Origin: a virus
Strand: one strand, 5' to 3'
IMG/VR virus record: IMGVR_UViG_3300035180_002574
Location: 117,178 to 181,177 of that record
DNA: 64,000 nt
Position numbers and translations under genes: made by a program. Shown here one piece after another: positions 43,818 through 64,000 of this stretch (positions are counted from its first letter, which is position 1; the number at the start of each line of letters is the position of its first letter). The notes under the pieces were generated by a model, which searched no databases, was not told the origin of the DNA, and was given only the letters and a program-made list of their open reading frames with translations.

Positions 43818-46800
43818 TTAGAACAACTTTTTAGAAGTCTTAGCAAATGCTGCTGACAACTGATCGTATAAGCTACCATCTGCCTGAGTGGAGGTGTTAA
43901 CTTCTCCGGATCCAATTACGCCAACTTGCGGCATGCGACCTGCGTCTTTGCGCATAAGAGGTGCGTGTTTTGCAACGACCTTCTTAAGTGAATCAAAACT
44001 TTCATCATTGAACTTCATGATTTCGTCAACCTGAGCAGAAACTGAGCTTCTGTCACTGTGGCAAAGACCGCGGTCAACCATATCATATGCTAATTCATAT
44101 GCTCTAGCCATCTTGATTCTATATGATTGAAGTTCTGCATCAATCTGGGCTTTAACGTGCTCTTTTACAAGCTCGCTTGCGAATTCAGATCCACCATCTG
44201 CTTCACCAAAATATTTCTTCCAATATGCGACGGCATCCTTATCTAAACCTTCTGCGACAAGAGCATCAAGATCAGATACGGCAATCTTTCCTTCACTAAT
44301 TAAGGCTTGAATTGCTTCTGCTTCTTTGCGAATCTTTGGAGGTGCATTAGCAAGATCCATCATTGCATCATGTGTCTCTTCAATATCTTCTACTTTGGCT
44401 AAATCACCAGTTGGCTTTACATCTAATTGAGTTGTAAATCCGCCCTTTGGATGAGCTTCGTGAAGGTGAGGAGAAACCTTAAGAGTTTCTGCTGCCAACT
44501 TAGCACGAAGAGCTGCGCGATCTGCCTTAGAAGCTGTTGCTTTAAATACGTCGGCTGGAAGCTGGGTTTCTGGCTTCAAATCTCCTGCCTTAAGATCATT
44601 ATCATCGGCAAGATCAAGTTCTGGTAGAACTTCATGATCAACTCCCTCAAGTCCTTCGTGATGTGGTTCTTCAACCTCATCGTCAAGCCCTGTTTCATCT
44701 TCTTCTAATAACTTTGCCAAGTGATCTACATCAGCATTTGAATCATTAACCAAATCCATTAAGTTGTTGTCATCTTCTCCCATTGAGGTCTCCGTTGATT
44801 CTTGTTCTGCCAATGCTTGAAGTTCAGCTTCAATTGCTGCGCGCTTCTCGATAGCCTTGGTTCCACGAGCATACTTAACGAATGCCGTCATTAGTTTGAA
44901 TCCATCGGCAATGGCTGCCTTTGCCTCAGCGATTGCATCTTGTGCAATTGAGCTTACTACATCAGTGTTTGAAGGAGTAATTGCTCCAGTATCGTACATA
45001 CCAGAAATCATCTCTAATTCTTCTTTGTGATCGTTAAGTTCTGCAACTGATTCTTTCATTGCGTGAATCAATGCTCCATTCAACTCTTTTCTAAGAGTAT
45101 TAAGAGTAGAATCTCCGGCAGAAGCTGCGGTACCCATTTCTGGAGCTGGTTCTGAACCCATTTCTTTTTGATCACCAAACAATTTGTTAATTGCTTCTTG
45201 TAAATCTGATGATTGTTCGACAAGCTGAGGAACAATAGATTGTATTTGTTCTTTTGGATCACCTGATTTACCAGAGTCTCCAACTGGTGGCTCGGTTCCC
45301 GTTGCAGGAGCTGGTTCAGCGGCTGGTGAAGCTGCATCGGCTGGAGGAGCTGGAGGAGCTGGAGGAGCTGGAGGAGCTGCTTCTTGTGCCTTCTTTACCA
45401 TAGCGCGAACTCTATCCGCACCCTGAATTTTAATCTTTTCAATTAATCTTGCACCGAAATCGGCGGTTGCAACTTTATCATAGAACAAGTCAGAATTACC
45501 GTTTGTCAACTCATTAACAGTTGCGGTCAAAATTAACTTGTCACCTAAAAAGACGTTCCAAACGTGATCGCCTAATGATTCGGCTGACTTGTGGAAAGTT
45601 GCTTTAAGAGTATTTGCTCTACGAAGAAGTTCTTTACGCTTTAATTCATCAGAAGTATCTGCTGAATTTGGACTTGGGTGAAGACCATCTACGGAACCAA
45701 CACCAGGGAATGGTTTTTGACCAACCATGTGCTTATCTTCATCACGAAGATCAACGTTCATCTTGTCAACTTGATACTTTGGCTTACCAGGAGTTGGTGT
45801 ATTAGGATTATTTGGTCCCTCGCCATTTTGAAAGTATCCTAATTTCTTTTGCTCAAGAGTTTCTTTGGCAAGATTAACAATAGCATTACGACGCATTGCT
45901 CTCTCTTCAGAGGTTGCGCGAGCCAACATTTTCTTACGTTCTAATTCGCTCATGCCAACAGAATCTGGACCTGGATGCATGCCATCAACAGGACCGGTGT
46001 CCATTTGACCGACCATTTGTTTGTCTTCATTCCTCAACTTCTCATTAGTTGGGTCTTTTTGGTATTTTGGTTGACCAGGAGAAGGCTCCTCTGTTCCTTG
46101 ATAGTAAGCCTTCTTGTTGATATTATCTTTTGATCCAGACATATTTTCCTCTTGTTTGTTTAATTTATTAAGGGTTTCTAACTTATCCAAGCTTTCTTTC
46201 ATTTGACTCAATTTAGCCTCGATAGCAGAAGCTACGGCTCGAAGCTCGGTAAGAGAGTCTGCATCAAAAGTGGCAGACGCGAATTTGTCAGTTGATGGAA
46301 GAGCCAATCCAAAATCAGTACTTACTGTGGTCCCTTCTGCCATAGCAGAAGTTCCCGACGATTGATTAGATGCAAGATCATTGCCAGATTTTGGATTATT
46401 TTCATCTTCATCATTAAATGAAGATTGTAATTTTGCAAAATCAGCAATTGCCTTGTTAACATCCTCGCGGAATGTTTCTAAATCTTTAGAAGTTACTGTA
46501 ATGCTAGTGACAGCACCAGTTCCTTCTTCCACAAATTGGTTAGGGTTACCAGTTGTAAAAGTAATAGAAGCTTGATAATTATCTGCTAATTTCTTTAGCT
46601 CCCGAGTCTTACTATCTACATATGCATTTAATGTATTGGCAGCCGCAATAATATGTTTAATGTGAGCTTTTGGATCCGCACCATTAACAACAATTGAAAG
46701 TTCAATTGGATTTAAATCTACGTTAATTTCACCATAACCACTTTTTCTTCTCATGTGGTCACAGAAATCAGATTCTGTTCTAGCCACTCTAGCACAATCA

Positions 46801-47381
46801 CTACAAATTGCTCTACCAACGGCTGTGCCCATAGATACGGAGTGGGAATAACCTGTCGCAACTTTTCTGGCTAAATCTGGGTAATTTTGTTTATCAAGAG
46901 CACAAAGCGCGATGACACGTTTCAAATTACGATCATAATAGGTATCAACTATAAAACCTCTAACATGATCTACCGAACTGGATTTATGATCTATGCAAAG
47001 AGGTTTACCGATCCATTTTTTGTGCGCTTTAATCAACTCTTCTTCTGGGAAGATATCTCCGTTGGAATTCTTATAAGGTCTGACATTATTGTCATTACTG
47101 GTCCAGCGCCATGTATTATCACTTTTATCCCAACCAACCTTTACAGGTTCACCGGCGGGTGTTAATCGAGGAGTTCCATCATCATTGAGAGCAGACGCTT
47201 CCGCAGCGTGCATCATTACAGCAGAGAAATATAAAAAGTCTTCAGCTTTAGGAGCTACCTTCTTTAAATTGCTGGCAAACTTCTTAAAATTATCTAGAAT
47301 CTCTTGACTAACAACAGGAATACAAGAAGCAACGTCCTCTATCTTGTTAATCTCTATAGACTCACCAATTTTTTTAAACAT
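43818..47381 (-). CDS. Prohead maturation protease fused to a long scaffold polyprotein (1187 aa)
   Basis: N-terminal NGD.F...E, LCIDH, VSMG, C..C...C.H, ELSIV..GADPKA (HK97/herpes-like protease pattern); acidic coiled-coil C-terminus with repeats. Confidence 0.75.
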   Translation of the reverse strand: MFKKIGESIEINKIEDVASCIPVVSQEILDNFKKFASNLKKVAPKAEDFLYFSAVMMHAAEASALNDDGTPRLTPAGEPVKVGWDKSDNTWRWTSNDNNVRPYKNSNGDIFPEEELIKAHKKWIGKPLCIDHKSSSVDHVRGFIVDTYYDRNLKRVIALCALDKQNYPDLARKVATGYSHSVSMGTAVGRAICSDCARVARTESDFCDHMRRKSGYGEINVDLNPIELSIVVNGADPKAHIKHIIAAANTLNAYVDSKTRELKKLADNYQASITFTTGNPNQFVEEGTGAVTSITVTSKDLETFREDVNKAIADFAKLQSSFNDEDENNPKSGNDLASNQSSGTSAMAEGTTVSTDFGLALPSTDKFASATFDADSLTELRAVASAIEAKLSQMKESLDKLETLNKLNKQEENMSGSKDNINKKAYYQGTEEPSPGQPKYQKDPTNEKLRNEDKQMVGQMDTGPVDGMHPGPDSVGMSELERKKMLARATSEERAMRRNAIVNLAKETLEQKKLGYFQNGEGPNNPNTPTPGKPKYQVDKMNVDLRDEDKHMVGQKPFPGVGSVDGLHPSPNSADTSDELKRKELLRRANTLKATFHKSAESLGDHVWNVFLGDKLILTATVNELTNGNSDLFYDKVATADFGARLIEKIKIQGADRVRAMVKKAQEAAPPAPPAPPAPPADAASPAAEPAPATGTEPPVGDSGKSGDPKEQIQSIVPQLVEQSSDLQEAINKLFGDQKEMGSEPAPEMGTAASAGDSTLNTLRKELNGALIHAMKESVAELNDHKEELEMISGMYDTGAITPSNTDVVSSIAQDAIAEAKAAIADGFKLMTAFVKYARGTKAIEKRAAIEAELQALAEQESTETSMGEDDNNLMDLVNDSNADVDHLAKLLEEDETGLDDEVEEPHHEGLEGVDHEVLPELDLADDNDLKAGDLKPETQLPADVFKATASKADRAALRAKLAAETLKVSPHLHEAHPKGGFTTQLDVKPTGDLAKVEDIEETHDAMMDLANAPPKIRKEAEAIQALISEGKIAVSDLDALVAEGLDKDAVAYWKKYFGEADGGSEFASELVKEHVKAQIDAELQSYRIKMARAYELAYDMVDRGLCHSDRSSVSAQVDEIMKFNDESFDSLKKVVAKHAPLMRKDAGRMPQVGVIGSGEVNTSTQADGSLYDQLSAAFAKTSKKLF
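45340..45375. repeat. 9-bp tandem repeat x4 encoding (APP)n
   Basis: (gctggagga)4 inside the scaffold region, just after MVKKAQ. Confidence 0.85.
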
Positions 47382-47662: not shown

Positions 47663-48313
47663 TTATTTTCTCCCGCCCTTTTCATTGACCAAGACATCAT
47701 TAAGCTGATTTTGTCTTTGATTAAAGAGTTCCAATAATAATGGCTTTTTCTTTTCAATTTTAACCTGCAGCTCTTTACTGACTGAATCAACCCAATTTGT
47801 TGCTAAAATATTTGATTGTATGTGATTTTTAATTCTATCATCCAATATTTCAGAGATACTATCACATTGTTTTTGAATATCATCCATCGACTTAGTGACA
47901 TTGCCTATAAAATCTTTTGCCTCTAGATTATCAAATAAATCTACAAATTTATTTACTTTTACTTCCAAATCATTAATTGAAGAAATAAGCGATTTAGTTA
48001 ATTTTATAGTCTGAGTGTCAGATGAAAATAATTGCATTAGATTTACGCATTTAAATGCTAAATGTTTAAATTCATTGAAATTATCTACTGCTTTATCCCT
48101 AAATCTACGAATAGCGACTCTTGCATCCATAACTTCTTTTGGCTTAATATCAGGATTATCTGTAAAAGGAGTCTTCATAATATCTAAATGAAGAGATGCT
48201 CTTTCTAGAGACTTATTTGCGCTATTCAAACACATAATAGCGCGTTCAGCCTGACGTTTTTCTTCGTCAGTCACGCTGTATGTCATTTGAATGGTATAAG
48301 CCCTTTTAATCAT
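47663..48313 (-). CDS. Helical hypothetical head protein
   Basis: MIKRAY motif at the N-terminus; overlaps the phosphatase stop. Confidence 0.65.
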   Translation of the reverse strand: MIKRAYTIQMTYSVTDEEKRQAERAIMCLNSANKSLERASLHLDIMKTPFTDNPDIKPKEVMDARVAIRRFRDKAVDNFNEFKHLAFKCVNLMQLFSSDTQTIKLTKSLISSINDLEVKVNKFVDLFDNLEAKDFIGNVTKSMDDIQKQCDSISEILDDRIKNHIQSNILATNWVDSVSKELQVKIEKKKPLLLELFNQRQNQLNDVLVNEKGGRK

Positions 48314-49070
48314 ATATAAACCCGCCTGGATTTAATACCGGACCAAATCCTTGGACTCCAGCATCATTATTATATTGACCAACTGGTGGTATCTTACCAG
48401 CAGTCTCCTCTTTATCATGTTCTTTTATTGACTTATAATTTTGATAATTTTGACGGGTAGGAGATTGATCATTAATAAAATTATCTACAGAATCCATTGG
48501 GTACTGTCTTGTTTCGTCTAGGAATGGCGCAAAAGATCCCTGATGAGCCTCATCCAATATCCCGGTACGATTATCGCTGATGTATTCACGCGTATTTGAA
48601 ACTATATCAGCTGCATTCTCATCTTTCATCGGCTGACATGATTTAATTATTTTTTTGTATAGGTCTACAACTTTAGGATCAACCCCTATACCAAAACCAA
48701 AAGACATAGCTTCTTCAATGGCTGCTTCTGGTTTCATATTCATGTATTTGCATTTATACATTGCAACTACTAATCCAGTTCTATCTTTACCAAATTTACA
48801 ATGTACGAAAGTAGGTCCGCCTTTTATTAATAAATCATGCAAATTCTGATTTAAGAGTTTAAGAATAGATTTCCTATCCATTTCTAACGGAAACATTACG
48901 TGGTCTATCCCCAATAATTTGCAAACTCTATGTATTCTTTCTCCAGCATCTTTATCCAAACTAACAATTTTTTTAATACCCAAACGATCTTTTAACCATT
49001 TCACTTCTTTAGGGCTGGGAGCGGATCCTCGATACAATTTATTATTTACTTTGTCTAGATTCCTAATCAT
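48306..49070 (-). CDS. Cysteine-dependent (PTP/DSP, Siw14-like) phosphatase
   Basis: LYRGSAP and P-loop HCKFGKDRTG (C-x5-R). Confidence 0.9.
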   Translation of the reverse strand: MIRNLDKVNNKLYRGSAPSPKEVKWLKDRLGIKKIVSLDKDAGERIHRVCKLLGIDHVMFPLEMDRKSILKLLNQNLHDLLIKGGPTFVHCKFGKDRTGLVVAMYKCKYMNMKPEAAIEEAMSFGFGIGVDPKVVDLYKKIIKSCQPMKDENAADIVSNTREYISDNRTGILDEAHQGSFAPFLDETRQYPMDSVDNFINDQSPTRQNYQNYKSIKEHDKEETAGKIPPVGQYNNDAGVQGFGPVLNPGGFIYD

Positions 49071-50210: not shown

Positions 50211-51320
50211 TTAAATGAATTTGAGCAAAAACTTGCGGTAATTGATATCGGCGGTTTTCCAACTGATTTGTTGATATGATGACTTTTTATTCATAAAAAT
50301 ATTGGTTTTAACTGAAATTGATCCAATTTTTTTAGTTGCTAAAACAAATGCTTCTTCTATTGCTGCGGTCAACTCTTTCACTGTATCTAAACAAATTTTT
50401 TCTGGACCAGCAATTGAACACTCGATCTCAACGTCAGCACCGTTTGAACACGTATATGCTGATGCCCCTAGCTCTTCATCTAGAGCTGCGCATAATATTC
50501 TAGAAAATTCTAATTCGTTTTCTAGACTGTCGGCATTGACTTTGATTAAAATATTGTGAGATGGCAAATAACGTCTAAAAAGTTTTTTATCATTAGATGA
50601 CATAGTTTGAAGTTTTTCATTCAACATATTTACTAGATCATCAACCTTAATATCAGAATTAGTTATATCTGGCTCTTTTGGTTGCTTGGGGGTGACAGAT
50701 GTACTAGTATATCCTGAACCATGCAATTCCTCTAAAGCCTTTTTATAAATTGGATTAGAAGCATTCTTCTCAACTTGTTTTAACATATCGCCATAAGTTA
50801 TTACTCCGGGAATGTCTCCATGAAATAATGGATTGGATTTGTAAGCGGAAGATTCCGTTGCCACCTCAACATGATTGTTTCCATATTTTTTAGAATATTT
50901 TTTGCCATTTTCAATGAATGATTCTGGATTTTCTTCTAATATTGGAGTAGATGGATCGCCGCGCTTAACGCCTGCCAATTTTAAAGCCGCGGGAAAAAAT
51001 ATGCCAAGATAAACTAGTGCGGGAGAATCTAATGGTTTTCCATAAATTCGTGATATGCCCTGAAATAATTGCTTTACCAATGGCAATTGTTCTACACCAG
51101 ACATACGTCTTAAATCTTCTGGAGTTCCTTGAAATTTCAAACCTTTAAGAGTGGCAGGCATAAATTGAATTAAACCAGATGCCCCACCGTGCGCATTATG
51201 TGCGCTTGGATCAATACCAGATTCTGAAACCATGACATTTAATATGTCTTCTGGCTTCATTCCAAGTTCCGATGCGATCTGAACTAATTTTGGATAGAAT
51301 CCCTCTCCCAAATTAGACAT
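50211..51320 (-). CDS. Lytic transglycosylase (SLT) domain protein
   Basis: MVSESG.DP.A....ASGLIQFMP.T motif. Confidence 0.85.
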   Translation of the reverse strand: MSNLGEGFYPKLVQIASELGMKPEDILNVMVSESGIDPSAHNAHGGASGLIQFMPATLKGLKFQGTPEDLRRMSGVEQLPLVKQLFQGISRIYGKPLDSPALVYLGIFFPAALKLAGVKRGDPSTPILEENPESFIENGKKYSKKYGNNHVEVATESSAYKSNPLFHGDIPGVITYGDMLKQVEKNASNPIYKKALEELHGSGYTSTSVTPKQPKEPDITNSDIKVDDLVNMLNEKLQTMSSNDKKLFRRYLPSHNILIKVNADSLENELEFSRILCAALDEELGASAYTCSNGADVEIECSIAGPEKICLDTVKELTAAIEEAFVLATKKIGSISVKTNIFMNKKSSYQQISWKTADINYRKFLLKFI

Positions 51321-52725: not shown

Positions 52726-54540
52726 TTAAACTGGTGGAGGTGGCGGAGGCGGTCCTCCACCTGGGAGTCCACCTGCTGGTGGAGCGCCCAAATCTAATCC
52801 AGGTAATCCGCCTGGTGGTGGTCCTTCACTTGGCATTCCTGGTGCGCCTGGGGCTCCCGGTGCTCCTGGCGTTGCGCCCGCTGCTGTGACGGCTGCCTCA
52901 GATATTTCATCTTCTTCATCCAAAGATCTCAAAGCGTTTAAATCCATTGCTTGCAATACAATTTTTTCTTTTTGCACAATTGCGGATTGTACAGCTTCTC
53001 TACGCATCTTACGAACTTCATCTTCAAATTCTAAACCTAAAGCACGATACAATGTATGTAAAGAAACTCTCTTCTGAGACTCATCACCTTGTGTTAAGGT
53101 TACTAATGTGTTAATATAGTCTCCAGCATCAAACAAAGACATATGGTTCCAATCAACCTCTGGAACAATTAATTGTTTTTCTCCGCCAGAATAATCATAA
53201 AATCCTTGGATTTTAGATATTGGTGCAAAGATTTTTCTCTTCAACCATTGAGATAACATATTTCTAAATTGCATATATCTCTGACGTAATACGTCAAGAG
53301 CTACGCCACCGTTAGCATAGGTAGTATCGGCTCCACCATCCATTAATACGGATGGTACTTGCAATCCAACATAGATCTCTTTGATAATTTGTGTGATATC
53401 GTTACCAATATCAAAAATTCCTTGACCATATCCTACGCGCTCAACAGCTACACCTTCATGAGTAAATATCTTGAAATCTTTATCATACTGTGCTTCTTCA
53501 AATACGCTTCTCCAAGCCTCCAAGTCGGCATGGGTTGGTTTAAAATCTGCCGAGCCTATCTTAACCAATGTCAATGGATTGATCATATTATCAGCTTGAG
53601 CGTATTTGGATTCTCTTAACTTATCAAATAACATCAATTGTCTAAAAATACAAACTGGCAAACCAGTTCCTCTTATTTCATAAGGACTAATTCTTCTAGC
53701 TAAATGAGAAACTTGGAAGTTATCCAGTTGAATATTATCGCCACGCTTAACAGAATCAATAATATATTGATTTAATTGTTTTCTTTGTTCAATATCGCTT
53801 GGTTTATTGGAGAAAACGATACGTTTCAAATTTTCATCTGGACGCATCATAATAACTGGCTCATTGGCAGCCACGGTACGTTTAACTACCATATAGTCTG
53901 GATTTTGAATTAATAAGCGACTCCACTTTCCCTTACTTTCATCAAGCTCAGCAAACACAAATGCTTCGCCCAAAAGCCAATACTCTTGCGCTATTTGCAC
54001 GGATATATTCATTAAATCAATTTCTTCAATCATATCATTGAAGAATTTTTCAATATCCTTATTAGGGCACTTGATGTTTAATTTGCTAATCGGGTATGTA
54101 CTATGCAAATTAATAGCATTATGAACGAATGGGTTTAAGGCATAGAAGCTACGACACCAGGCGTTAATAGTGGCTCTGTCTCTTGGAAGATTTATATTGC
54201 TGTTGAGCCATAATGGAGAGTATACTTCCGGAGTTTGTTTTACAGAATCTCCACTTCCGCCACGATAATTACTACTGCTAACAACTTGCGCAAATTTATT
54301 CAATCCAATGGAAGATGTTACATTGGAATTAGAAGTCATTATATTTTCTTTGGTGGGAGAAGAGGATCCATCTCTAAATAATCCGTTTTCTACCTCTGTT
54401 CCTAACACTTCTCTTCGATGTTGAGAAACACCATATGCCATTAATGCGCTAACTTGAGGGACAGCCGACCTATTTGTAAGAAATTTTTCAGAATTGGAGG
54501 GACCGACCCACTGACTCTGTTTTTTGTTATTATTAGACAT
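52726..54540 (-). CDS. Portal protein
   Basis: Directly downstream of TerL; 604 aa; portal-like core (NPFVHNAINLH, YWLLGEAFVF, HLARR.SPY..RG); Pro/Gly-rich tail. Confidence 0.8.
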   Translation of the reverse strand: MSNNNKKQSQWVGPSNSEKFLTNRSAVPQVSALMAYGVSQHRREVLGTEVENGLFRDGSSSPTKENIMTSNSNVTSSIGLNKFAQVVSSSNYRGGSGDSVKQTPEVYSPLWLNSNINLPRDRATINAWCRSFYALNPFVHNAINLHSTYPISKLNIKCPNKDIEKFFNDMIEEIDLMNISVQIAQEYWLLGEAFVFAELDESKGKWSRLLIQNPDYMVVKRTVAANEPVIMMRPDENLKRIVFSNKPSDIEQRKQLNQYIIDSVKRGDNIQLDNFQVSHLARRISPYEIRGTGLPVCIFRQLMLFDKLRESKYAQADNMINPLTLVKIGSADFKPTHADLEAWRSVFEEAQYDKDFKIFTHEGVAVERVGYGQGIFDIGNDITQIIKEIYVGLQVPSVLMDGGADTTYANGGVALDVLRQRYMQFRNMLSQWLKRKIFAPISKIQGFYDYSGGEKQLIVPEVDWNHMSLFDAGDYINTLVTLTQGDESQKRVSLHTLYRALGLEFEDEVRKMRREAVQSAIVQKEKIVLQAMDLNALRSLDEEDEISEAAVTAAGATPGAPGAPGAPGMPSEGPPPGGLPGLDLGAPPAGGLPGGGPPPPPPPV

Positions 54541-54604: not shown

Positions 54605-57508
54605 TTATACCCTACGTTTAATATATCCCGTGATCGCTAGCGGTTTATTTTGATCTTTCAATGATTGCTGAAAGTTTAGAGGATTATTGCTAGTAAACCC
54701 TTTAGTTATGATGAATTTATATGCAATATATGCATTCAATAAAGCCATAAAACCATCGTTAGGGGTGCTTCCTTTGACATAATGAATCGTTGGATCTCCG
54801 CCCCTAGAAATGGAAGGTTTAATTTCCATACTTGCACAATGATCTATTAACCATGCTATTTTTTCATAGTCTCCATACGGAAATCTAATCATACCTTTTT
54901 TCATCTGCTCATATAATTCGCCAATATAATAATCTCTTTCAAAAACCAATTCTTTTGGAAATGAATCAGCAGAGAATTTTACATAACCATTAACTTTAGG
55001 ATGAGCGCGAGAAACTAGATATTTATCTCCATATGAATTATGAAGAATGATAGAGAAATCGTTAGAGTATCCAATATCTCCGATCGCCAGATTTACAGAG
55101 TATTGTCTCATTATTTGGTCAATAACCCCCTTTTTACTTTCTGGGTCATTGCGTTTGAATTTTGTTGCAAACTCAATTGATAATAATCCTGGACCCTTAG
55201 CAACCAATACTACTGCGGTACTGTATGATTGACCGCCTTTAGATTTTTCTGGATCAGCCAATTGTTCTAAATCAGCCCTAGCTCCATAGTCAATTCCAAC
55301 AACAACTATTTGTTCTTCGCCAGGTAAAATCTTAGGTCTAAATTTTCTGCCAAAATCTGCACAAAATTGTCTAATTTCTTCTGGAGTGATCGGGCTAGAA
55401 TCTCCTTGAAAGAACTCTCCTAGAACTTCGTTCTGATAAACTCTTTCAGTATTAACTGGGTGCTTGCCTGGTTTTTCATTCATAATGTCTTCCTTAGTAA
55501 AAAAAGGCATGTATAACTGATTAATATGAAAACCAATCAAATCAGACTCAGATTCTGGTCTTGAAGAAATCCATTTCCCTCTTTCTGCCGCATCTCTTTT
55601 GTCTTGCTGATGATTACAGTGAGTACATTGGACGGTAAATCCAGTAATCCAAATTTTTTCCCAATCATCTGATCCGGGCGTATAAAGTGGGAAATGTTTG
55701 CCACACTTTTCACAACCCAAATAATAATATTGCTGAGTTGACATTGCCCATCTCTTATAAAACCCCGAACCTTTTTTACGAGGAGTTCCAAAGAATACTT
55801 GGATTCCTTTATTACCATATTTGGCAGTGGTTAAAATTTTAAGAGCATTACCAATGGCTTGATCAGATGTTTTTTGAACTTCATCAAAGAAAATTCCATC
55901 AGCAGTATTATGTGTAGCAATATATTTTTTTGTAACTAAAAATAAATGAGAAGGGCTATCTACAGTAATACACCTCATTGGAATTGGATTTATTTTTTTA
56001 ATATCTGTAATGAATCTATGGGTGCTTTTTGTTGAAATATTATTTTTTATTCTATCTAATTTTCTTTTCATGCGAAAAACTGGTAAATTTGTGATAAATC
56101 TAATTCTATATTTATCAGCGTATTTTTTTCCATATCTTTTGCTATCTCTTTTATAAAAATATGCTTTAATACCTAAGCTTAATACTAAGTCATAAACTTG
56201 TTTCGCTAAATCCTCACGTACTTGTACAAATTCTATATTTCCATTTTTATCACAATGCCCGTCAGTATCTAATAAACCTTGTAATAAAGCAAGCCTTTGA
56301 TTAAAGGAACTTTTCATATAAATTTCTGGAATATATTTTTTATATAGATTATGCTCTATATTCTTGCCATTAACCAATAAATTAAGAGATCTTAATTTTG
56401 TAGTTAATCCTTTTATTCTATATGAGCATGATTTTGATGGTATTGAATTAAAATTTCCTATATGATTTATTGAAGATTTAATTACATGATATTCATATCC
56501 ATTAAAAATTTCTGGATCTGCTGACTCAATTCTACCATTGCCATCACCATTTCCTAACCATAATCCAAGTAAATATGGATCTAATAATAAATTTTTATCA
56601 GAATAATTAAGTGGTTTAGTACACAAAATTGAATGATTTGCTTCACCAGATTTTTTTAATGTTTCGAATAATTCTTTAGTATTTTTTACTGTTGGTTTTC
56701 TTTTTTTATTACGATCTGATTTAGTATACGTTAACCATAAATGATCTGCGCAAGCATCTATTGTCGTATCATCATCAAAAGTAATTTTATATGATTCGGG
56801 ATTAAAATCTATAGGATGTAATTTAGTAACAGTGCAAATATTTCCATTTTCATCAAATAGTTGATCTCCTTCTTTTAACTCTTTTAATTTGACGAATCCA
56901 TTTATTGTAGGAATATCAGTCTCAAGAGATAGCATTCGCCCCATGATACGGTCAGCATCAAGCCCAGTAGATTCAATCCATAAATGGTTTCCTCCAATGA
57001 ATTGTTTAAAATGCAACGAATCATTTGTAGTAGTAGATTGATCTAACAATGTTTGCATAAATGTTTTTGGTTTGGCGCCCTTTTTATCAGTATCTGAATT
57101 GATTGCTACAGATGAATTAATCATTTGATTAAGCTTAGTTTTTGAATAAGCAGCAGCCAATTCCAATTGAGGAAATGTATGAATAATACGAATGGGCGGT
57201 TTATCGCCAACTCCAAAAAGACCTGAACCCATGAAATACATCTCAAGAACGCTTGCCATAGTGGTTGCTCCCACCTGACGTCCTTTAACGATGATTATGG
57301 GCTTAGAATTTGGCTCTAAAGCTTTAATACCAATGTAACGATAAATGTCTGCAAATGGTCGATAACCATTTCCATGTAAACGAAATGGCTTGCCATCTAA
57401 TGTTAGATATTTCTCAGCGAAGCTGACTGGGTCCAAGGACAATAATTGTTGTTTTAGTTTTTCAAATAAATCTTTATCGGTTGCTGCCGACGAATTTATA
57501 GTTGGCAT
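54605..57508 (-). CDS. terL: Terminase large subunit (intein-containing)
   Basis: KGRQVGATT Walker A, FFDEVQ Walker B after intein removal, GTP motif III, Zn-finger CEKC..CTHC, VGIDYG nuclease Asp. Confidence 0.92.
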   Translation of the reverse strand: MPTINSSAATDKDLFEKLKQQLLSLDPVSFAEKYLTLDGKPFRLHGNGYRPFADIYRYIGIKALEPNSKPIIIVKGRQVGATTMASVLEMYFMGSGLFGVGDKPPIRIIHTFPQLELAAAYSKTKLNQMINSSVAINSDTDKKGAKPKTFMQTLLDQSTTTNDSLHFKQFIGGNHLWIESTGLDADRIMGRMLSLETDIPTINGFVKLKELKEGDQLFDENGNICTVTKLHPIDFNPESYKITFDDDTTIDACADHLWLTYTKSDRNKKRKPTVKNTKELFETLKKSGEANHSILCTKPLNYSDKNLLLDPYLLGLWLGNGDGNGRIESADPEIFNGYEYHVIKSSINHIGNFNSIPSKSCSYRIKGLTTKLRSLNLLVNGKNIEHNLYKKYIPEIYMKSSFNQRLALLQGLLDTDGHCDKNGNIEFVQVREDLAKQVYDLVLSLGIKAYFYKRDSKRYGKKYADKYRIRFITNLPVFRMKRKLDRIKNNISTKSTHRFITDIKKINPIPMRCITVDSPSHLFLVTKKYIATHNTADGIFFDEVQKTSDQAIGNALKILTTAKYGNKGIQVFFGTPRKKGSGFYKRWAMSTQQYYYLGCEKCGKHFPLYTPGSDDWEKIWITGFTVQCTHCNHQQDKRDAAERGKWISSRPESESDLIGFHINQLYMPFFTKEDIMNEKPGKHPVNTERVYQNEVLGEFFQGDSSPITPEEIRQFCADFGRKFRPKILPGEEQIVVVGIDYGARADLEQLADPEKSKGGQSYSTAVVLVAKGPGLLSIEFATKFKRNDPESKKGVIDQIMRQYSVNLAIGDIGYSNDFSIILHNSYGDKYLVSRAHPKVNGYVKFSADSFPKELVFERDYYIGELYEQMKKGMIRFPYGDYEKIAWLIDHCASMEIKPSISRGGDPTIHYVKGSTPNDGFMALLNAYIAYKFIITKGFTSNNPLNFQQSLKDQNKPLAITGYIKRRV
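55907..56935 (-). mobile_element. Class-3-type intein (343 aa) with LAGLIDADG endonuclease
   Basis: Starts MLSLETDIPT, block B ADHLW, block F MRCITV, ends ATHN/T; exteins rejoin as RIMGR-TADGIFFDE; motifs LGLWLGNG and LQGLLDTDG. Confidence 0.88.
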
Positions 57509-58147: not shown

Positions 58148-59107
58148 TTATCCCTTGAAGTTTTGATTCCAGTCCATTCCATCTTCTACTTCGATATCAT
58201 CATCGGGCATAAAACCCCTATCTTGACGAAGTGGATATCCCATATCTGCAAGAAGCTGCATAGTTTCAGCCTGCTCTCTTTCAGTAAGTTTATATCTCTT
58301 AACTAGTCTATTATAAGTATCTTCAATGTCATGACCGGCAGAAACAGCGCTATTTACACAAATTCTAGCAATTCTAGAGATGAATAATGGTGCCATAATG
58401 TAAATACCACTAACTCCGGTAACTTTTTGAGCCTCTTTAACAAGAGAAGAAGTTTCGGCGTCGGCTTTTTTGCCCTTTCTTTTCTTTTTCTTAGTATCTT
58501 TAACCTTATTAATTCGGTCCTGAAGCATATCCAAACCTTTTTCGATCTGAGATCTTACATGCTCTATTTGGTTAGAGTCTAACTCACCATCCAAATCAAG
58601 TCTCATTGCTTTTGAAATCTCATTATCTAATCTCTCAAGATAAGAGGACGCCCTCTCCAGCCCGGCGGTATCATAGCCGGAATGTCTTGGAACATCTCCC
58701 AATCTCTCTTTAACCCAAGATAAAAAGCCCTTGGCACCTTTGGATTCCCAGTCCCACTTGTCATTCTTCTTGGACTTGCGAGCATCGTTATTGTCTTCTG
58801 TCTCGTCCTCTTTATCGTCTTCATCATCTTCATCATCTTCATCAGTGACAACAATTGCTTCTTGAGCAGCTACGTTTGGATCAAAATCAGGAGCGCCCAA
58901 TAATTGACCATCCAAATTAACTTCTAATATCAAATTTGGCTCTCCCGCTTTTGGGTCATCCACCGTAATAATTGGTTCATGAGACTCAACAACCTCAATT
59001 GGAGCCTCTTGGATTGCGGGCATAGGAGGCGTAATTGGAACCAAGTGAATTGGTCCACCCATTCCCTGTTGTTCATCAACAATTATTTGTGCTGTTGTCT
59101 CTAACAT
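58148..59107 (-). CDS. Acidic putative head protein
   Basis: D/E tract, basic tract, LVKEAQ motif. Confidence 0.6.
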   Translation of the reverse strand: MLETTAQIIVDEQQGMGGPIHLVPITPPMPAIQEAPIEVVESHEPIITVDDPKAGEPNLILEVNLDGQLLGAPDFDPNVAAQEAIVVTDEDDEDDEDDKEDETEDNNDARKSKKNDKWDWESKGAKGFLSWVKERLGDVPRHSGYDTAGLERASSYLERLDNEISKAMRLDLDGELDSNQIEHVRSQIEKGLDMLQDRINKVKDTKKKKRKGKKADAETSSLVKEAQKVTGVSGIYIMAPLFISRIARICVNSAVSAGHDIEDTYNRLVKRYKLTEREQAETMQLLADMGYPLRQDRGFMPDDDIEVEDGMDWNQNFKG

Positions 59108-59167: not shown

Positions 59168-60010
59168 TTAATACGACATATTATCGTAAATAGTGGTTCC
59201 TGATTCGGATTTTCCATATGGATTATCCGTTACTCTATCTAATCCATCTTCTCTAGCATCCATGCCTTCAAGACCATCAGGAAGTCCGTAAAAAGGCTCT
59301 TCTCCATAATTTAGATATTTTTCCAATAAAGACTGTAAGTAATCATGCATATCTTCTTTATTTTCAAAAGAATAATCTCTGCCATAATTTAACTCGGAAG
59401 GTAATTTACCTTCCTCATCTGGTCCAGGAAGATATTCATCTAAATTGCCGCCAATCTGAGCAGCTCCAGATACAGAAGAATCATCTTCTTTTATCATACC
59501 AGAATTTATCTGGTCATCAATTGGGAAATCTATATTATTTACATCTGAACAATTATAGCACGAATCAACTTCAATGGTTTTCTTTGGACCGGGGCATCTG
59601 CATGTTGTTATTTTTCCGCAGTTCTTACAATGTTTATTAAAATGTTCTCCAGCTGTTTTAACTAATCCAGTTAGTATTTCCATTCTTGCTTTAATTTTCT
59701 TTTGAGATTTGGTTAAAGAACCATCATCTTGAATCCAAGAATCATCTGCTTTATATTTATCCTTTAATTTTTTACGCCTATCTTTTAAGAAATCAGATAT
59801 GCTCTTATAATTTTGCATAGAATGCCAGCCCGCTCCTGGTCCATGTTTTGGATGGTCGGTTATACCTGGCGCATTATATAAGTCATAATTTCTATATAAA
59901 GGCTCTTCAAAACGAGGCTGTACTACAATAGCAGGCTCCGCTTTGTATTTTCTTTTTCCTGGAGTTGGCTCTTCTGTTCCTTGAAAATATCCTTTTTTAT
60001 TTGGCAACAT
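59168..60010 (-). CDS. Head protein with scaffold-like N-terminal peptide and Zn finger
   Basis: KKGYFQGTEEPTPGKRKY matches the scaffold repeat; LVKTAG followed by C..C....C.C...C..C. Confidence 0.6.
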   Translation of the reverse strand: MLPNKKGYFQGTEEPTPGKRKYKAEPAIVVQPRFEEPLYRNYDLYNAPGITDHPKHGPGAGWHSMQNYKSISDFLKDRRKKLKDKYKADDSWIQDDGSLTKSQKKIKARMEILTGLVKTAGEHFNKHCKNCGKITTCRCPGPKKTIEVDSCYNCSDVNNIDFPIDDQINSGMIKEDDSSVSGAAQIGGNLDEYLPGPDEEGKLPSELNYGRDYSFENKEDMHDYLQSLLEKYLNYGEEPFYGLPDGLEGMDAREDGLDRVTDNPYGKSESGTTIYDNMSY

Positions 60011-60770
60011 TAATGTTCCCCTTTACATGTTTAGCATAATATGGTCTCATTGGCTCTGTAATTGGAACATAATTCCATAAACCCATTTGTGTTAATAAAT
60101 AACTTGCTTTATCAGCATCTTTTGCAAATGCTTCATTTAATTTTTCCGCAAGTGACTTCTCAGAAGATATTTTGATAGAGTCAGGATTTTTTTTAACAAA
60201 TTCAATGATGGGTTTATCAACATCAAAATCTAACTTAGCTGCGAGATAAATTGCTCTCACCACTCTATTTTTATTTGATGTCAATGTTATTTCTGGAGCT
60301 AAACAAGTTTTTATTTTCTTTTCTTTTAGATCAGCAAATGCTCTTCCTGTAGGATCATATACCGTTTTCAAATCAAAATCTAACAATAAAGCATTGCAAG
60401 TAAAATCTCTGCTGAATATTTCTTTTTTTATGTCCGATGGATTTTTAATGCCCATTTTTGCAAGAATTTGCTCTATGTTTGGTACAATAAAATTGGATGA
60501 AAAATCCAACTTAAATTGACCTATATAAATAGAGCTATGACCGTCTGACATTGTTTTTCTAACTATATTATATTCCCTTTTGAATTTTTCAGCAAATTCT
60601 TGTGAAAGATAATCTATAGTATTATCACCGGTGGTGATGTCCAAATCTGATAGATCTTTTAATCTATCCAAATACCTATCTCTGGGCGTACCTCCGCAAA
60701 TATACGGCTTAGAAGAGCCAATACTTTGTTGAACTTCCAATATTTGTTGCAGCAATTCGCGAAGTTTCAT
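59997..60770 (-). CDS. Divergent, truncated class II (CCA/poly(A) polymerase-like) nucleotidyltransferase
   Basis: GGTPRD..DLD catalytic motif, SRDFTCNA (RRD variant), SNKNR in place of EDxxR; 257 aa, no body/tail domains. Confidence 0.82.
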   Translation of the reverse strand: MKLRELLQQILEVQQSIGSSKPYICGGTPRDRYLDRLKDLSDLDITTGDNTIDYLSQEFAEKFKREYNIVRKTMSDGHSSIYIGQFKLDFSSNFIVPNIEQILAKMGIKNPSDIKKEIFSRDFTCNALLLDFDLKTVYDPTGRAFADLKEKKIKTCLAPEITLTSNKNRVVRAIYLAAKLDFDVDKPIIEFVKKNPDSIKISSEKSLAEKLNEAFAKDADKASYLLTQMGLWNYVPITEPMRPYYAKHVKGNINVAK

Positions 60771-60777
60771 TTATCCC

Positions 60778-62625
60778 TTAAACTGCTGGTTTTGGAGGAG
60801 GCGGTGCAGGAGGTGCAGGAGGTGACGGAGCTTCTGGAGCTAAATCTTCGGCAACCTCTATTTCTGGAGTTTCCTTTGACTTCTGTTCTAGCTCTTCATT
60901 CTCCTGTTGCTTTCTCATTTCTTTTCGAACCTTTTCTTTATCAGCATCCTGCTGAAGTTTGTTCTTAACGGCATCCACTTCTGGATTTTGTTCAACTTCA
61001 TTTCCCTTCAAATCAATATCATGAGTGGTCATGGCTCCACGAAGTTTAGAAATGATATCTTCAATACGAGTAGAAATATAGTTGTTAGACTCTAACGCCT
61101 TATTAGTGGCTTCTGATAAAGATGGAAAGAAAGAAGCTAATCCAAGACTATCTAACATCATATCAACAATAGCTAATTGTCTTGGTATTTCTCTTGTTTT
61201 GAAAACCTTGGCTAAATCTTCTAGTTTAATAACAACATCATCTACGGTAATATTAGCGAAAACAACATCTATTTTTGAATCGAAAGATTCTGGAGATTTT
61301 GTTGTAGGCTGATTTGGAGATGGAGATTTATTTTCTGTAACCTCAATTGGAGCTTCTTCTGGAACTTTTGATGGCGATGTAGCTTCTGGAGGTGGCGTCA
61401 TTTCTGTTGGAGGTGGTGGCGCCTCTGGCGCTAACTGAGCTTCAACAACAATATCTCCCGGATCTTGGACCTCTAAAATATCATCTACTGATCCTTTATC
61501 AGCCGATAATCCTTTATTAAGATTTTTCATGAATTGATTGATACCAACAGAAGTTGTTTTTGTTGGGGTGGGAGGATTATTTGGAGCACTATCCGGAGGA
61601 TTTTGAGGCATTCCTGGTCCAGTTGATGGTAATCCACCAACAGACCCACTTCCTTGCATTGGTGGGGCAGGGGAGGCGGGAGGAGGCATTTTATTGCTTT
61701 GTGGAGACTTTTTTGGATCTTGTGGCTTGTTAGGAACAGGTTGCGCTGGCTCGGGGGCGGATTGTAATTTTGTATCTTCCTCCGCAATTGAATGTAAAGC
61801 TTGCGCAGCTTTGTAAAAACCATTTTTTGACAAAATGTTTGCTTGTCTCACAATTAAATCTTCGTAAGAACGAGTAGATAAACTTTTCTTATTAATCAAT
61901 TGAATTCTTTTCTTTAAATCATAGATTGCGTCTAATAATGATTCAAGCTCTTTCCCAGAAAACAATTGACCATCATCTGATCTTAATAATTTTTCAGCAG
62001 AATCAAGCCTGCCAATTATTTTATTTCTTTGTTTTTCGATGAGTTCTTTTCTGGAAGAATCTCCATCTACTGGTAGATCTTTACTAAAATCTATGTCTGT
62101 TGTGGGGTTTGATTCTTCGCGATTTCTTCCAATAGGAAGCATATATCCCCTATCAGCATCGCCATAGAAGAACTGAGCAAACTTATATTTCAAATGAACC
62201 CCTTCCTGGTAGTATCTTACCCAATTCATAAAATCAAAGATTTCCATCTCGCGCCATCCTCTTGTGGCTTGAGCGATAGCTACTTTTCTATCCACTCCTT
62301 GATGTTCGCTGGCAAGAATATCTCTAATTGCTGTTAGCCATTTTTCAATATTATGCTGACCCGGAATGTGCATGTATTGACTATCATTATTTGGATAGGC
62401 AGTTACATCATCTAAAGCGGTCTCCATATCCACCGGAGAACCCTCTCTAGTTTTAATTTTTTCTAACCACTTCAACATATTTTTTATTTGAGGGCTATCT
62501 AGTAAAACAGCCAGCTCTTCCTCACTATATGGTTTGATATAGTCTGGAATTTTAACTTTTTCTAATGATTCTACGTTTACCGGATCGGTAATATGAGATA
62601 TTTTGGTGCGCTCTTTGTTACTCAT
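60778..62625 (-). CDS. Large putative head protein with Pro-rich linkers
   Basis: 615 aa; KYKFAQ motif; poly-Pro segments. Confidence 0.6.
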   Translation of the reverse strand: MSNKERTKISHITDPVNVESLEKVKIPDYIKPYSEEELAVLLDSPQIKNMLKWLEKIKTREGSPVDMETALDDVTAYPNNDSQYMHIPGQHNIEKWLTAIRDILASEHQGVDRKVAIAQATRGWREMEIFDFMNWVRYYQEGVHLKYKFAQFFYGDADRGYMLPIGRNREESNPTTDIDFSKDLPVDGDSSRKELIEKQRNKIIGRLDSAEKLLRSDDGQLFSGKELESLLDAIYDLKKRIQLINKKSLSTRSYEDLIVRQANILSKNGFYKAAQALHSIAEEDTKLQSAPEPAQPVPNKPQDPKKSPQSNKMPPPASPAPPMQGSGSVGGLPSTGPGMPQNPPDSAPNNPPTPTKTTSVGINQFMKNLNKGLSADKGSVDDILEVQDPGDIVVEAQLAPEAPPPPTEMTPPPEATSPSKVPEEAPIEVTENKSPSPNQPTTKSPESFDSKIDVVFANITVDDVVIKLEDLAKVFKTREIPRQLAIVDMMLDSLGLASFFPSLSEATNKALESNNYISTRIEDIISKLRGAMTTHDIDLKGNEVEQNPEVDAVKNKLQQDADKEKVRKEMRKQQENEELEQKSKETPEIEVAEDLAPEAPSPPAPPAPPPPKPAV

Positions 62626-63412: not shown

Positions 63413-63439
63413 AATTGGCTTGCTAATAGCAAGCCAATT
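63413..63439 (-). terminator. 12-bp hairpin, probable terminator
   Basis: AATTGGCTTGCT-aat-AGCAAGCCAATT followed by a T tract on the minus strand. Confidence 0.7.
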
Positions 63440-63460
63440 AAGATTATATCAGAATTTTGA

Positions 63461-64000
63461 TTAATTTGAACCTAATCTACCTTCTCTAGTGTCAAATATG
63501 GCTTGTTCTTGAATTCCTAATCCTTTTGTCTGTTCTGAAACATCGCCTCCAGGAACTTTACTACCATTAATTAAATCGAATCCAGTATCGAAATTATATG
63601 TTTTCTTATCTAATTCACACTGCCAGACATGCTCACCAATACGGTAAATTTGTGTACCAGGATGATCTGGGCAATATCTTGTGCTCAATGGAGCCTCAAG
63701 TATTCTATATTCTTTTGTCATATCACTTTTATCAATTGCTTTTTTAGTATCAGCTATTTTGTTAGTGTCTTCTAAATTTTTACGAGGAGTTTCGTACTTC
63801 CTTTTTATTTCGTCTATTTTTTTCTCATCGGCAGCTTTTTTATTAGCTAATGTTTCTGGATTTGCTGCAATTGTTAATAATAATTCGTCAATAACTGATG
63901 CTTGTTTTTTGAGATTAGGGTCGTCTGACGAATCAAGCGCACTGGCTAAATTAGCCAATTCTTCTAATGATTCTGGCGTAATGTGAGACTCTTCTGGTGG
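63461..64000 (-). CDS. Hypothetical head protein (5' end outside window) with C/H Zn-binding motif
   Basis: Frame open to 64000 (PPEESHITPESLEELANLASALD...); YCPDH...WQC. Confidence 0.7.
   Translation of the reverse strand, partial: PPEESHITPESLEELANLASALDSSDDPNLKKQASVIDELLLTIAANPETLANKKAADEKKIDEIKRKYETPRKNLEDTNKIADTKKAIDKSDMTKEYRILEAPLSTRYCPDHPGTQIYRIGEHVWQCELDKKTYNFDTGFDLINGSKVPGGDVSEQTKGLGIQEQAIFDTREGRLGSN

Follow-up and report, generated by a model that had tools for sequence, protein, structure and literature searches.

A minimal class II nucleotidyltransferase with a changed templating motif in the terminase-portal gene run of giant phages, possibly associated with the capsid

Results

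Genes around the mini nucleotidyltransferase

The window, i.e., the whole stretch of 64,000 nucleotides analysed here, belongs to a 181-kb viral contig. It carries a gene for a small class II nucleotidyltransferase (hereafter the mini enzyme), which forms one co-directional run with the genes of the large terminase (TerL), the portal and the prohead protease-scaffold protein.

43818-47381, minus strand: prohead protease-scaffold protein, 1187 aa (residues 105-333 match PHROG 18299, head maturation protease, E 2e-14)
48306-49070, minus strand: DSP-PTPase-type phosphatase, PTP-SAK-like (Pfam PF03162, PF22784)
52726-54540, minus strand: portal protein (PHROG 16240, E 2e-54; 34% identity to the Bacillus phage G portal)
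54605-57508, minus strand: TerL with an intein (PHROG 675 and 15; Pfam GpA_ATPase, LAGLIDADG_3)
58148-59107, minus strand: conserved downstream neighbour, 319 aa, with an invariant K224-E-A226 before a conserved C-terminal domain
59168-60010, minus strand: partner gene, 280 aa, predicted disordered, overlapping the end of the mini-enzyme gene by 14 nt in the +1 frame
59997-60770, minus strand: mini class II nucleotidyltransferase, 257 aa, head and neck only (Pfam, PHROG, PDB alignments, AlphaFold)
60778-62625, minus strand: conserved upstream neighbour, 615 aa, Pro-rich, syntenic in 158/160 loci
63413-63439, minus strand: terminator-like hairpin ahead of the enzyme's gene run, a 12-bp stem followed by a T run

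No intergenic terminator-like hairpin was found on the coding strand from position 63401 down to TerL, in keeping with a single transcription unit. A weak 5-pair stem (60720-60705) lies inside the mini-enzyme gene.

The first-pass annotation had described the gene as embedded among head genes. This holds for the shared run with TerL, portal and protease-scaffold protein, and the head-module place proved deeply conserved in related phages, the gene being fixed three genes upstream of TerL in 160 related loci. The immediate neighbours have no recognisable family. In 80 close loci the order 165-256-615-nucleotidyltransferase-partner-319-207-TerL-portal is kept, and 80 distant loci have the same order at 27-46% identity, without a detectable 207-aa gene. 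Across 80 loci the mini enzyme is 57-75% identical and the flanking genes are ~31-66% identical; this higher identity suggests that the mini enzyme is under purifying selection. The DSP phosphatase is syntenic in 5/5 related genomes. The 615-aa neighbour has no Pfam or PHROG family and no PDB match; Pfam/PHROG scans with the single window proteins found nothing for the 319-, 256- and 615-aa neighbours, and profile searches against PDB (all three) and PHROGs (256-aa protein only) gave no matches. For the 256-aa upstream protein, a candidate small terminase, the AlphaFold model reached pLDDT 74 and Foldseek returned no match at E <=0.001, the G20c small terminase appearing only among the noise.

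A class II head and neck with intact catalytic residues

The open reading frame is real and its product is, as first annotated, a minimal class II nucleotidyltransferase. The Pfam profile PF01743 (PolyA_pol head) hits it with E 5e-12 and 46.7 bits (gathering cut-off 23). Its PHROG matches, 2244 and 24229, are both labelled tRNA nucleotidyltransferase, and its database name is tRNA nucleotidyltransferase/poly(A) polymerase. When the AlphaFold model (pLDDT 90.9) was compared with known structures (Foldseek, VIA-align), a check that the annotation had suggested for CCA enzymes and poly(A) polymerases, it scored Z 17-19.6 over ~225 residues against the head and neck of class II CCA-, A- and CC-adding enzymes, with 19.6 for both 3h3a and 4wby, and Z 14, below the CCA enzymes, against bacterial poly(A) polymerase I (PcnB). 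The closest folds are all RNA-end enzymes (Z 17-20), compared to Z <7 for aminoglycoside and other small nucleotidyltransferases, and by sequence the Aquifex A-adding enzyme comes out on top in PDB. Model residues 1-256 cover only residues 17-294, i.e., the head and neck, of the T. maritima CCA enzyme 3h3a, so the tRNA-binding body and tail domains are absent, as had been claimed. The mini enzyme scores 56.4 bits with NF009814 (CCA equivalog), under the cut-off of 290, and 35.7 bits with TIGR01942 (PcnB), under the cut-off of 305.65.

Motifs were read from alignments with PDB chains and 50 homologues. Two of them are of particular importance here.

60639-60647, minus strand: catalytic D42-L-D44, the motif A carboxylates, invariant in 50/50 homologues
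60264-60278, minus strand: S165-N166-K167-N168-R169 at the EDxxR template position (codons TCA AAT AAA AAT AGA; PDB alignments, homologue counts)

The retention of DxD, the third carboxylate and the central Arg of RRD, reported in the first-pass annotation, is confirmed: G26-G27-x-x-R30-D31, D42-L-D44 and D89 (in DFSSNF) are invariant in 50/50 homologues, as is S120-R121-D122-F-T-C-N, in which the first R of motif B has become S family-wide and the central R and the D are kept. The flexible loop, which CCA-adding enzymes need to switch from C to A, is indeed replaced; the segment between the third carboxylate and SRD has the canonical length of 25 aa, shows no sequence similarity to the canonical loop, and is modelled as an ordered helix at residues 99-105 (pLDDT ~90). 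The statement that ERxxxE is lost was too strong, as an invariant [E/D]209-K210 persists, which the 9ns4 alignment places opposite the ER of S. pombe cca2. Against 6ibp the register is different, and motif E of the mini enzyme thus appears degenerate or ambiguous. Since all three carboxylates, GGxxRD and SRD are invariant across hundreds of sequences of the family, catalysis can be argued for, and the mini enzyme is probably active. A decayed CCA gene was considered and rejected, because length and motifs are kept in >800 homologues and identity is above that of the flanking genes.

The templating motif and base choice

In class II CCA enzymes, the Asp and Arg of EDxxR are the textbook protein side-chain template that selects nucleotides. 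In every PDB alignment of the mini enzyme this motif D is occupied by SNKNR, in agreement with the first-pass annotation. Within the clade, N166 is found in 48/50 homologues and N168, R169 and R172 in 50/50, and the first position varies (S/T/A/N/V). Arg169 is thus kept alongside Asn166, and the amino group of C or A can still donate a hydrogen bond to Asn; a switch to U or G, which had been proposed, would be pure inference. According to the family tree, distant syntenic relatives still carry xDPxR, therefore the Asn of SNxNR is read as a derived state within an older family. When EDxxR of the human CCA enzyme was randomised with a library that included N, K and S, and selected in vivo for A- or CCA-addition, D or R was never replaced (PMC11784652). 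It follows that plain CCA- or A-adding by the canonical mechanism would be unlikely for the mini enzyme. The hallmarks of CC-adding enzymes are a variable first template position, loss of the flexible loop, and retention of the templating D and R (PMC11784652); in the mini enzyme the first position varies and the canonical loop sequence is gone, but the loop has its usual length and N stands in place of D.

A disordered partner is coupled or fused to the mini enzyme

The protein encoded by the partner gene is basic and predicted to be disordered (pLDDT 0.38 in an ESM model), with the invariant Tyr motifs Y-F-Q-G and Y-R-N-Y-D-L-Y. Enzyme and partner are one fused open reading frame in 19/63 loci (~30%), and a conserved overlap of the two genes is found in 39/63; on the tree, the fused and split states were exchanged at least 4-7 times. 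A programmed +1 frameshift joining enzyme and partner is probably not needed: the partner has its own ATG with an upstream AAGGGG run that resembles a Shine-Dalgarno sequence, and the conserved K-G codons would account for the arrangement. The Cys-rich residues 121-155 are an insert specific to the lineage of the window, and a zinc ribbon was rejected for the partner. A peptide near the N-terminus of the partner recurs in the prohead protease-scaffold protein, with 65% identity over 23 aa.

59933-60001, minus strand: partner residues 4-26, N-K-K-G-Y-F-Q-G-T-E-E-P-T-P-G...
46050-46118, minus strand: copy in the 1187-aa protease-scaffold protein, N-K-K-A-Y-Y-Q-G-T-E-E-P-S-P-G...

These are its only two occurrences in the contig. 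The junction peptide of the partner reads K-x-[AGS]-Y-F-Q-G..P.PG..KY, and K-x-[AGS]-Y-[FY]-Q-G is present in 60/65 partners. The GTEEP and GGGGVNEP variants of the peptide co-vary between partner and protease-scaffold protein within two related genomes (G001, G002), and the protease of a third (G003) carries both. One criterion for head cargo is a peptide in common with a head-assembly protein; such a peptide is found here, with the identity given above and with co-variation in relatives. It should be noted that enzyme and partner are separate polypeptides in the window, so that the link to the capsid is direct for the partner only, and that the common peptide could serve a purpose other than docking or cleavage. 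The protease-scaffold protein has 13 hydrophobic-x-K-x-A motifs, compared to 3.3 expected; as a rule for the junction this motif was discarded, since it fits 16/65 partners only.

In distant relatives, the mini enzyme is fused to further domains: (i) Phage_lysozyme2 with a sub-threshold M15 match (P0194, from locus L108, which has the same synteny); (ii) an M15 peptidase (P0231); (iii) HAD_SAK, an RNA-repair HAD domain (P0218). Lysozyme fusions in late genes have been taken as a sign of injected proteins (PMC5512222). Together, the common peptide and the fusions to cell-wall hydrolases speak for packaging, if only circumstantially.

A canonical CCA enzyme in the same window

The first-pass annotation missed the coupled or fused partner gene, the derivation of SNxNR within a family that keeps xDPxR, and a second enzyme of this class in the window.

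29805-31025, plus strand: canonical full-length CCA tRNA nucleotidyltransferase, 406 aa, with RRD, EDGLR and ERIKDE intact

This protein scores 323.5 bits with NCBIfam NF009814 (cut-off 290) and matches PDB 6ibp with E 3e-55. The canonical enzyme is present in 3/5 related genomes, and the mini enzyme in 5/5. With the canonical copy encoded in the window, the mini enzyme is to be seen as a specialised second paralogue and not as the phage's CCA enzyme. In relatives, CCA is already encoded in 66/76 tRNA genes, so its de novo synthesis is not needed; for these two reasons, the mini enzyme as sole CCA enzyme for CCA-less tRNAs was rejected. The opposite argument, that absence of tRNA genes speaks against a tRNA role, was rejected as well, because the contig is 42% complete and near-complete relatives are tRNA-rich: relatives that are >=97% complete have 34-56 tRNA genes each, and complete relatives have 3-5 RNA ligase genes.

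Discussion

Comparison with known systems

The head and neck of the mini enzyme resemble those of the class II tRNA nucleotidyltransferases that add CCA (T. maritima 3h37/3h3a, G. stearothermophilus 1miv, P. halocryophilus 6ibp), A (A. aeolicus 4wby/1vfg) or CC (A. aeolicus 3wfo-3wfs). Common to all are GGxxRD, DxD, the third carboxylate, the R-D of motif B, and the motif D Arg with the R that follows. Unlike these enzymes, the mini enzyme has no body or tail, S-N-[KR]-N-R for the template, SRD, an ordered helix for the loop and a degenerate motif E, and its gene, fixed in a head-packaging operon, is coupled to or fused with that of a disordered partner. PcnB (3aqk-3aqn) likewise has a head and neck of class II. 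It matches the mini enzyme less well in structure (Z 14; the mini enzyme scores 36 bits with TIGR01942, compared to a cut-off of 306) and keeps body-like domains. To bind RNA, PcnB depends on a C-terminal region that is basic and disordered, a likeness to the mini enzyme with its partner. The canonical enzyme of the window and those of jumbo phages (Iyer et al. 2021, PMC7824862) belong to the same Pfam family, PF01743; in contrast to the mini enzyme, the canonical copy has all motifs and four domains, passes the equivalog cut-off, is accessory, and lies outside the packaging operon.

Short phage nucleotidyltransferase-like proteins (PHROG 24229; mycobacteriophage Wildcat gp8; phage G gp199; those of Lak megaphages) also consist of head and neck only (~220-300 aa). 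They are 25-27% identical to the mini enzyme, and the terminase-proximal synteny is absent where checked (phage G). We found no experimental characterisation of these proteins in the literature searched, and no cultured relative, the nearest being Bacillus phage G; this phage was rejected as a cultured proxy, since its gp199, 27% identical, is encoded elsewhere in the genome. T4 Alt and the internal proteins of T4, with their capsid-targeting sequence and gp21 cleavage, and the polyvalent proteins (Iyer et al. 2017, PMC5512222) offer another comparison. As with these, the mini-enzyme gene is a presumed late gene of the head module, and relatives have lysozyme or peptidase fusions. The head protease-scaffold protein contains a copy of the short peptide at which the modules here are fused or split. 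The T4 cargo has an N-terminal leader, unlike the mini enzyme, where the peptide is at the C-terminal junction of the enzyme. CCA-type nucleotidyltransferases are not among the domains described for polyvalent proteins, and CCA is not mentioned there (PMC5512222).

Proposed role and its alternatives

We propose, with a probability of roughly 0.4 for the reading as a whole, that the mini enzyme associates with the capsid, transfers nucleotides to RNA 3' ends and has an altered choice of base, and that its gene belongs to the late core of the terminase-portal-protease module in phage-G-like megaphages. Fold, catalytic motifs, the motif change, synteny, coupling or fusion and the common peptide are seen directly, and it is from these that we infer activity, RNA substrate, packaging and timing. 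The protein would be an active, template-independent nucleotidyltransferase of the CCA/poly(A)-polymerase family, cut down to its catalytic head and neck. It would be made together with its disordered basic partner, the two genes overlapping here for translational coupling and being fused in ~30% of the loci. The partner peptide would dock the pair into the prohead or be cut by the prohead protease, and by either way the enzyme would come to travel in the capsid. In the newly infected cell, the mini enzyme would extend RNA 3' ends by one nucleotide or a few; ends of the tRNA-acceptor type would be the most plausible substrate, and the DSP phosphatase of the head module may act alongside as part of an end-healing kit. 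Having Asn where true CCA enzymes have the templating Asp, and lacking both the Glu clamp and the flexible loop, the pocket would no longer permit their switch from C to A.

Several points run counter to this proposal besides those noted above for the separate polypeptides and the peptide: the immediate neighbours have no assignable function, a few packaged copies seem insufficient for bulk tRNA repair, tRNA binding is unexplained without the body and tail domains, and nucleotide choice is not readable from the sequence. A fuller version appears quite unlikely. It holds that phage-G-like megaphages pack the mini enzyme, with its Asn/Arg template, and the DSP phosphatase via the peptide common with the protease, that both are injected with the DNA and, before phage gene expression, restore RNA 3' ends or tag them anew (tRNA acceptor ends hit by host defences, for instance), and that the SNxNR clade adds neither C nor A.

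A late, unpackaged cytoplasmic enzyme for tRNA 3'-end repair, adding only C or only A, could instead top up damaged CCA ends of phage tRNAs, with the basic disordered partner binding RNA in place of body and tail. The wealth of tRNA and RNA ligase genes in complete relatives is consistent with such a role, as are the HAD_SAK fusion in one relative and the Aquifex A-adding enzyme as best match in PDB. The variable first template position and the absence of the canonical flexible loop are hallmarks of CC-adding enzymes (PMC11784652), and on chemical grounds the amino group of C or A should still find a pairing partner in Asn. However, a canonical CCA enzyme is already encoded in the window, the place in the TerL-portal operon is fixed over deep divergence, unlike that of scattered accessory tRNA- and RNA-repair genes, and the partner peptide common with the protease and the cell-wall hydrolase fusions are left unexplained. 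We consider tRNA repair somewhat unlikely, with a real chance of being correct. An ordinary CCA enzyme that is merely redundant would agree with the database name, but not with 56 bits against a 290-bit equivalog cut-off or with the lack of templating Asp, body and tail; a role in assembly or structure, for which enzymatic activity does not matter, would agree with the head-module position, but not with three carboxylates, GGxxRD and SRD that are invariant over hundreds of sequences. Taken together, these two possibilities are very improbable.

The invariant gene position, between conserved genes of no assigned function and TerL, would also suit a packaging-linked enzyme that adds nucleotides to phage DNA 3' ends after the terminase cut, for protection or priming, and bacterial CCA enzymes are reported to accept tDNA minihelices. 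This is a long shot: the ribose-reading Arg and Asp of motif B are kept (SRD), the mini enzyme has no DNA-binding domain, and we know of no precedent among class II enzymes. To our knowledge, no class II member modifies proteins either, and the retained neck with its nucleotide pocket and the nearest folds, which are those of RNA-end enzymes rather than of small nucleotidyltransferases, speak against a protein nucleotidylyltransferase that AMPylates or UMPylates other head proteins or the conserved Tyr of its partner (Y-F-Q-G, Y-R-N-Y-D-L-Y). We give this last alternative little credence, although the partner, disordered and with invariant Tyr motifs, is made at a fixed ratio to the enzyme, and Pol-beta nucleotidyltransferases are among the protein-modifying domains of injected polyvalent proteins (PMC5512222).

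Implications

The family provides hundreds of natural minimal enzymes without the tRNA-binding half, one large clade of which is also without the templating Asp. Nature thus offers a test of how the choice of base is encoded and of the minimum size of such a polymerase. The fusion peptide common with the protease would be a candidate portable capsid-targeting or cleavage tag from an uncultured phage lineage. If the capsid link is true, an RNA-end enzyme would join the short list of phage enzymes delivered with the DNA, and this would suggest that host attacks on RNA 3' ends are an immediate-early battleground for giant phages.

Fold and template motif of the mini nucleotidyltransferase

The reduced class II nucleotidyltransferase analyzed here (mini enzyme) is encoded by a single ORF:

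59997-60770 (-): mini nucleotidyltransferase, 257 aa

This protein matched Pfam PF01743 (PolyA_pol head) with an E-value of 5e-12, over the gathering score, as well as two PHROGs named tRNA nucleotidyltransferase, and scored far under the NCBIfam cut-offs (56 bits vs. 290 for the CCA model; 36 vs. 306 for the PcnB model). The top PDB sequence matches were the A. aeolicus A-adding enzyme, S. pombe cca2 and the P. halocryophilus CCA enzyme. An AlphaFold2 model was built from 50 homologues (pLDDT 90.9); Foldseek placed class II CCA-, A- and CC-adding enzymes and PAP at the top, and VIA-align yielded Z-scores of 19.6 to 3h3a and 4wby, 17-18 to CC-adding enzymes, 14 to PAP and 9-10 to TENT5. Residues 1-256 of this model aligned with no part of the targets other than head and neck; the mini enzyme is therefore a complete catalytic head and neck, without body or tail.

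The motifs G26-G27-x-x-R30-D31, D42-x-D44, D89-F-S-S-N and S120-R-D-F-T-C-N are invariant among the 50 homologues. In every PDB alignment, S165-N166-K167-N168-R169 lies opposite EDxxR, the amino-acid template for CTP and ATP; N166 is present in 48 of the 50 homologues, and N168, R169 and R172 in all of them. The third carboxylate and SRD are 25 residues apart, the same length as the canonical flexible loop (e.g., in the window's own canonical enzyme); the segment is unrelated to that loop in sequence and forms an ordered helix in the model. Thus, the alignments, homologues and model bear out the first-pass annotation in describing a reduced enzyme with the catalytic motifs kept, EDxxR rewritten to SNKNR, the loop replaced and the body and tail absent. 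The statement that ERxxxE was lost went too far: in motif E, the invariant [E/D]209-K210 is opposite ER in one PDB alignment, with the register shifted in another.

A library of the human CCA enzyme randomized at EDxxR, with N, K and S among the residues covered, never yielded a replacement of D or R under in vivo selection, and CC-adding enzymes are reported to have a variable first template position and no loop (PMC11784652); the mini enzyme is therefore unlikely to work by the canonical C-then-A mechanism. With Asn at the template, a hydrogen bond donated by the amino group of C or A can still be accepted, and pairing with U or G is conceivable as well; the sequence does not tell in which direction base choice would have changed, if it did.

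Origin of the template Asn

Metagenomes contain over 800 homologues of ~257 aa, many of them on contigs 250-480 kb long. In a 50%-identity clustered library, ~200 representatives had E <1e-10, and most of these were 240-260 aa. SRD, DFSSNF, GGxxRD and DxD are kept in this wider family, and the template position is variable. In a tree of 192 rows (FastTree, as for all trees), rooted with the canonical enzyme as a single long outgroup branch, all basal groups have x-D-P-x-R, and a derived 53-row clade, with a support of 98, has mostly x-N-x-N-R (41 N, 10 with another residue, and 2 D). The window's enzyme belongs to a 24-row subclade with N in 21 rows. Given this distribution, the template Asn is a derived, later conserved state inside an older family of short enzymes, and not decay. 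To our knowledge, the templating Asp is universal in class II enzymes, which, besides the tree root, also points to Asp as the ancestral state.

Separate canonical enzyme and tRNA genes

A PF01743 search of the contig revealed another gene:

29805-31025 (+): canonical CCA enzyme, 406 aa

The product passed the NCBIfam CCA equivalog cut-off (323.5 bits vs. 290), contains GGCVRD, DWD, RRD, EDGLR and ERIKDE, and matched PDB 6ibp with an E-value of 3e-55. Five related genomes (354-481 kb, 8-56 tRNA genes) all have the mini enzyme, and three have the canonical one. No tRNA genes were found in this contig, which we attribute to its 42% completeness. In relatives (genomes G001-G004, loci L082-L086), 76 tRNA genes were inspected, and 66 already encode CCA. 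Given this and the separate canonical enzyme, the mini enzyme is neither the CCA synthase of the phage nor required to finish its tRNAs. One relative (G002) has a predicted suppressor tRNA (L083:9074-9150) with the anticodon TTA, which reads TAA.

Packaging operon

In 80 close loci, the genes are ordered 165-aa, 256-aa, 615-aa, mini enzyme, 280-aa partner, 319-aa, 207-aa, TerL, portal. This order is retained in 80 distant loci (enzyme 27-46% identical, xDPxR kept), minus the 207-aa gene, which is undetectable by similarity. Conservation is higher for the mini enzyme (57-75% identity) than for the flanking genes (~31-66%). The following features belong to this region:

63413-63439 (-): strong terminator-like hairpin with a 12-bp stem, ahead of the 256-aa gene
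43818-47381 (-): protease-scaffold protein, 1187 aa, with a prohead-protease domain (residues 105-333) and a long C-terminal extension
48306-49070 (-): DSP-type phosphatase (PTP-SAK-like; dual-specificity/Tyr-phosphatase fold), in the head module between portal-side genes and the protease

The hairpin overlaps a promoter-like site (63443-63470), and no further terminator-like hairpins were found between genes from there to TerL; it likely marks the start of a transcription unit running through the mini enzyme to TerL. The proposed location among head genes holds at the level of the operon, in which TerL, the portal and the prohead protease (PHROG 18299) were identified; the immediate neighbors, at most putative head genes, had no match in Pfam, PHROGs or PDB, and a model of the 256-aa protein had no fold match. 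The phosphatase is syntenic in 5/5 related genomes, and it is possible that it is an RNA-end phosphatase acting with the mini enzyme. RNA ligase genes of relatives are elsewhere in the genome, not at this locus.

TerL (54605-57508, -) has 967 aa vs. ~620-635 aa in most relatives and carries an intein (LAGLIDADG homing-endonuclease/HINT, roughly residues 190-535); long TerL genes (776-986 aa) are also present in a few relatives. Two genes past the portal, 50211-51320 (-) encodes 369 aa with an N-terminal SLT lytic-transglycosylase domain, likely a virion-associated cell-wall hydrolase. In the 319-aa neighbor (58148-59107, -), K224-E-A226 is invariant over 21 very divergent homologues and directly precedes the sole well-conserved domain (C-terminal), a position compatible with a processing site. 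Directly after the enzyme, distant loci of the xDPxR clade often encode a protein of 130-146 aa that starts M-I-R-G-K..C-P-F-G-L-P..G-C (L105:8856-9287, L126:8780-9169 and many more); this Cys motif is conserved and had no match in Pfam.

Partner gene and shared peptide

The gene following the mini enzyme overlaps it:

59168-60010 (-): partner gene, +1 frame, starting 14 nt before the enzyme stop codon

Both genes are present in 63 close loci: in 19 of these, enzyme and partner form a single continuous protein (466-783 aa), and in another 39 the short overlap is kept (...N-V-x-K-stop over M-S-x-N-K-K-A-Y-F-Q-G). Across the tree, there were at least 4-7 switches between the fused and split states, which marks enzyme and partner as a single functional unit. 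Disorder is predicted for the partner (ESM pLDDT 0.38), in which a basic stretch of ~95 aa at the N-terminus and a region at the C-terminus are conserved. The window's partner also has a Cys-rich stretch (C-x2-C ... C-x-C ... C-x2-C; 59546-59650, -), a lineage-specific insert absent from most homologues.

Residues 4-26 of the partner share 65% identity with residues 423-445 of the protease-scaffold protein (BLAST numbering; 422-444 counted from the ATG), and a weaker second copy lies further downstream; both protease-scaffold copies have the form Y-[FY]-Q-G...P.PG..KY. In the 181-kb contig, only these two proteins carry the peptide. K-x-[AGS]-Y-[FY]-Q-G is found in 60 of 65 partners. Moreover, the variants ...Q-G-T-E-E-P... 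(G001) and ...Q-G-G-G-G-V-N-E-P... (G002) each occur in both the partner and the protease-scaffold protein of the same genome, and the protease of a third genome (G003) has both. The motif hydrophobic-x-K-x-A is 2.3-fold enriched in the head half of the window, with 13 occurrences vs. 3.3 expected in the protease-scaffold protein; as a junction rule it fits only 16/65 junctions, and is kept as a lead.

Distant relatives have other fusions, to an M15 peptidase (P0231), to an RNA-repair HAD_SAK domain (P0218), or to Phage_lysozyme2 with a sub-threshold M15 match (P0194, at a locus with the same synteny). Fusion to a lysozyme in a late gene is an accepted clue that the product is injected (PMC5512222).

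Possible roles of the mini enzyme

Homologues are named tRNA nucleotidyltransferase/poly(A) polymerase in databases. Jumbo- and huge-phage surveys refer to CCA-adding enzymes in general terms only (PMC7824862, PMC7162821), and we found no description of the head-module mini enzyme, the altered template or the partner in the literature searched.

An unpackaged enzyme repairing tRNA ends is a less probable alternative. A structural or redundant role is improbable, and roles at DNA ends or in protein modification are equally improbable. We favor, with a probability of about 0.4, a capsid-associated RNA-end enzyme. Such an enzyme would be catalytically active, would use RNA 3' ends as its substrate, and would be carried in the capsid.
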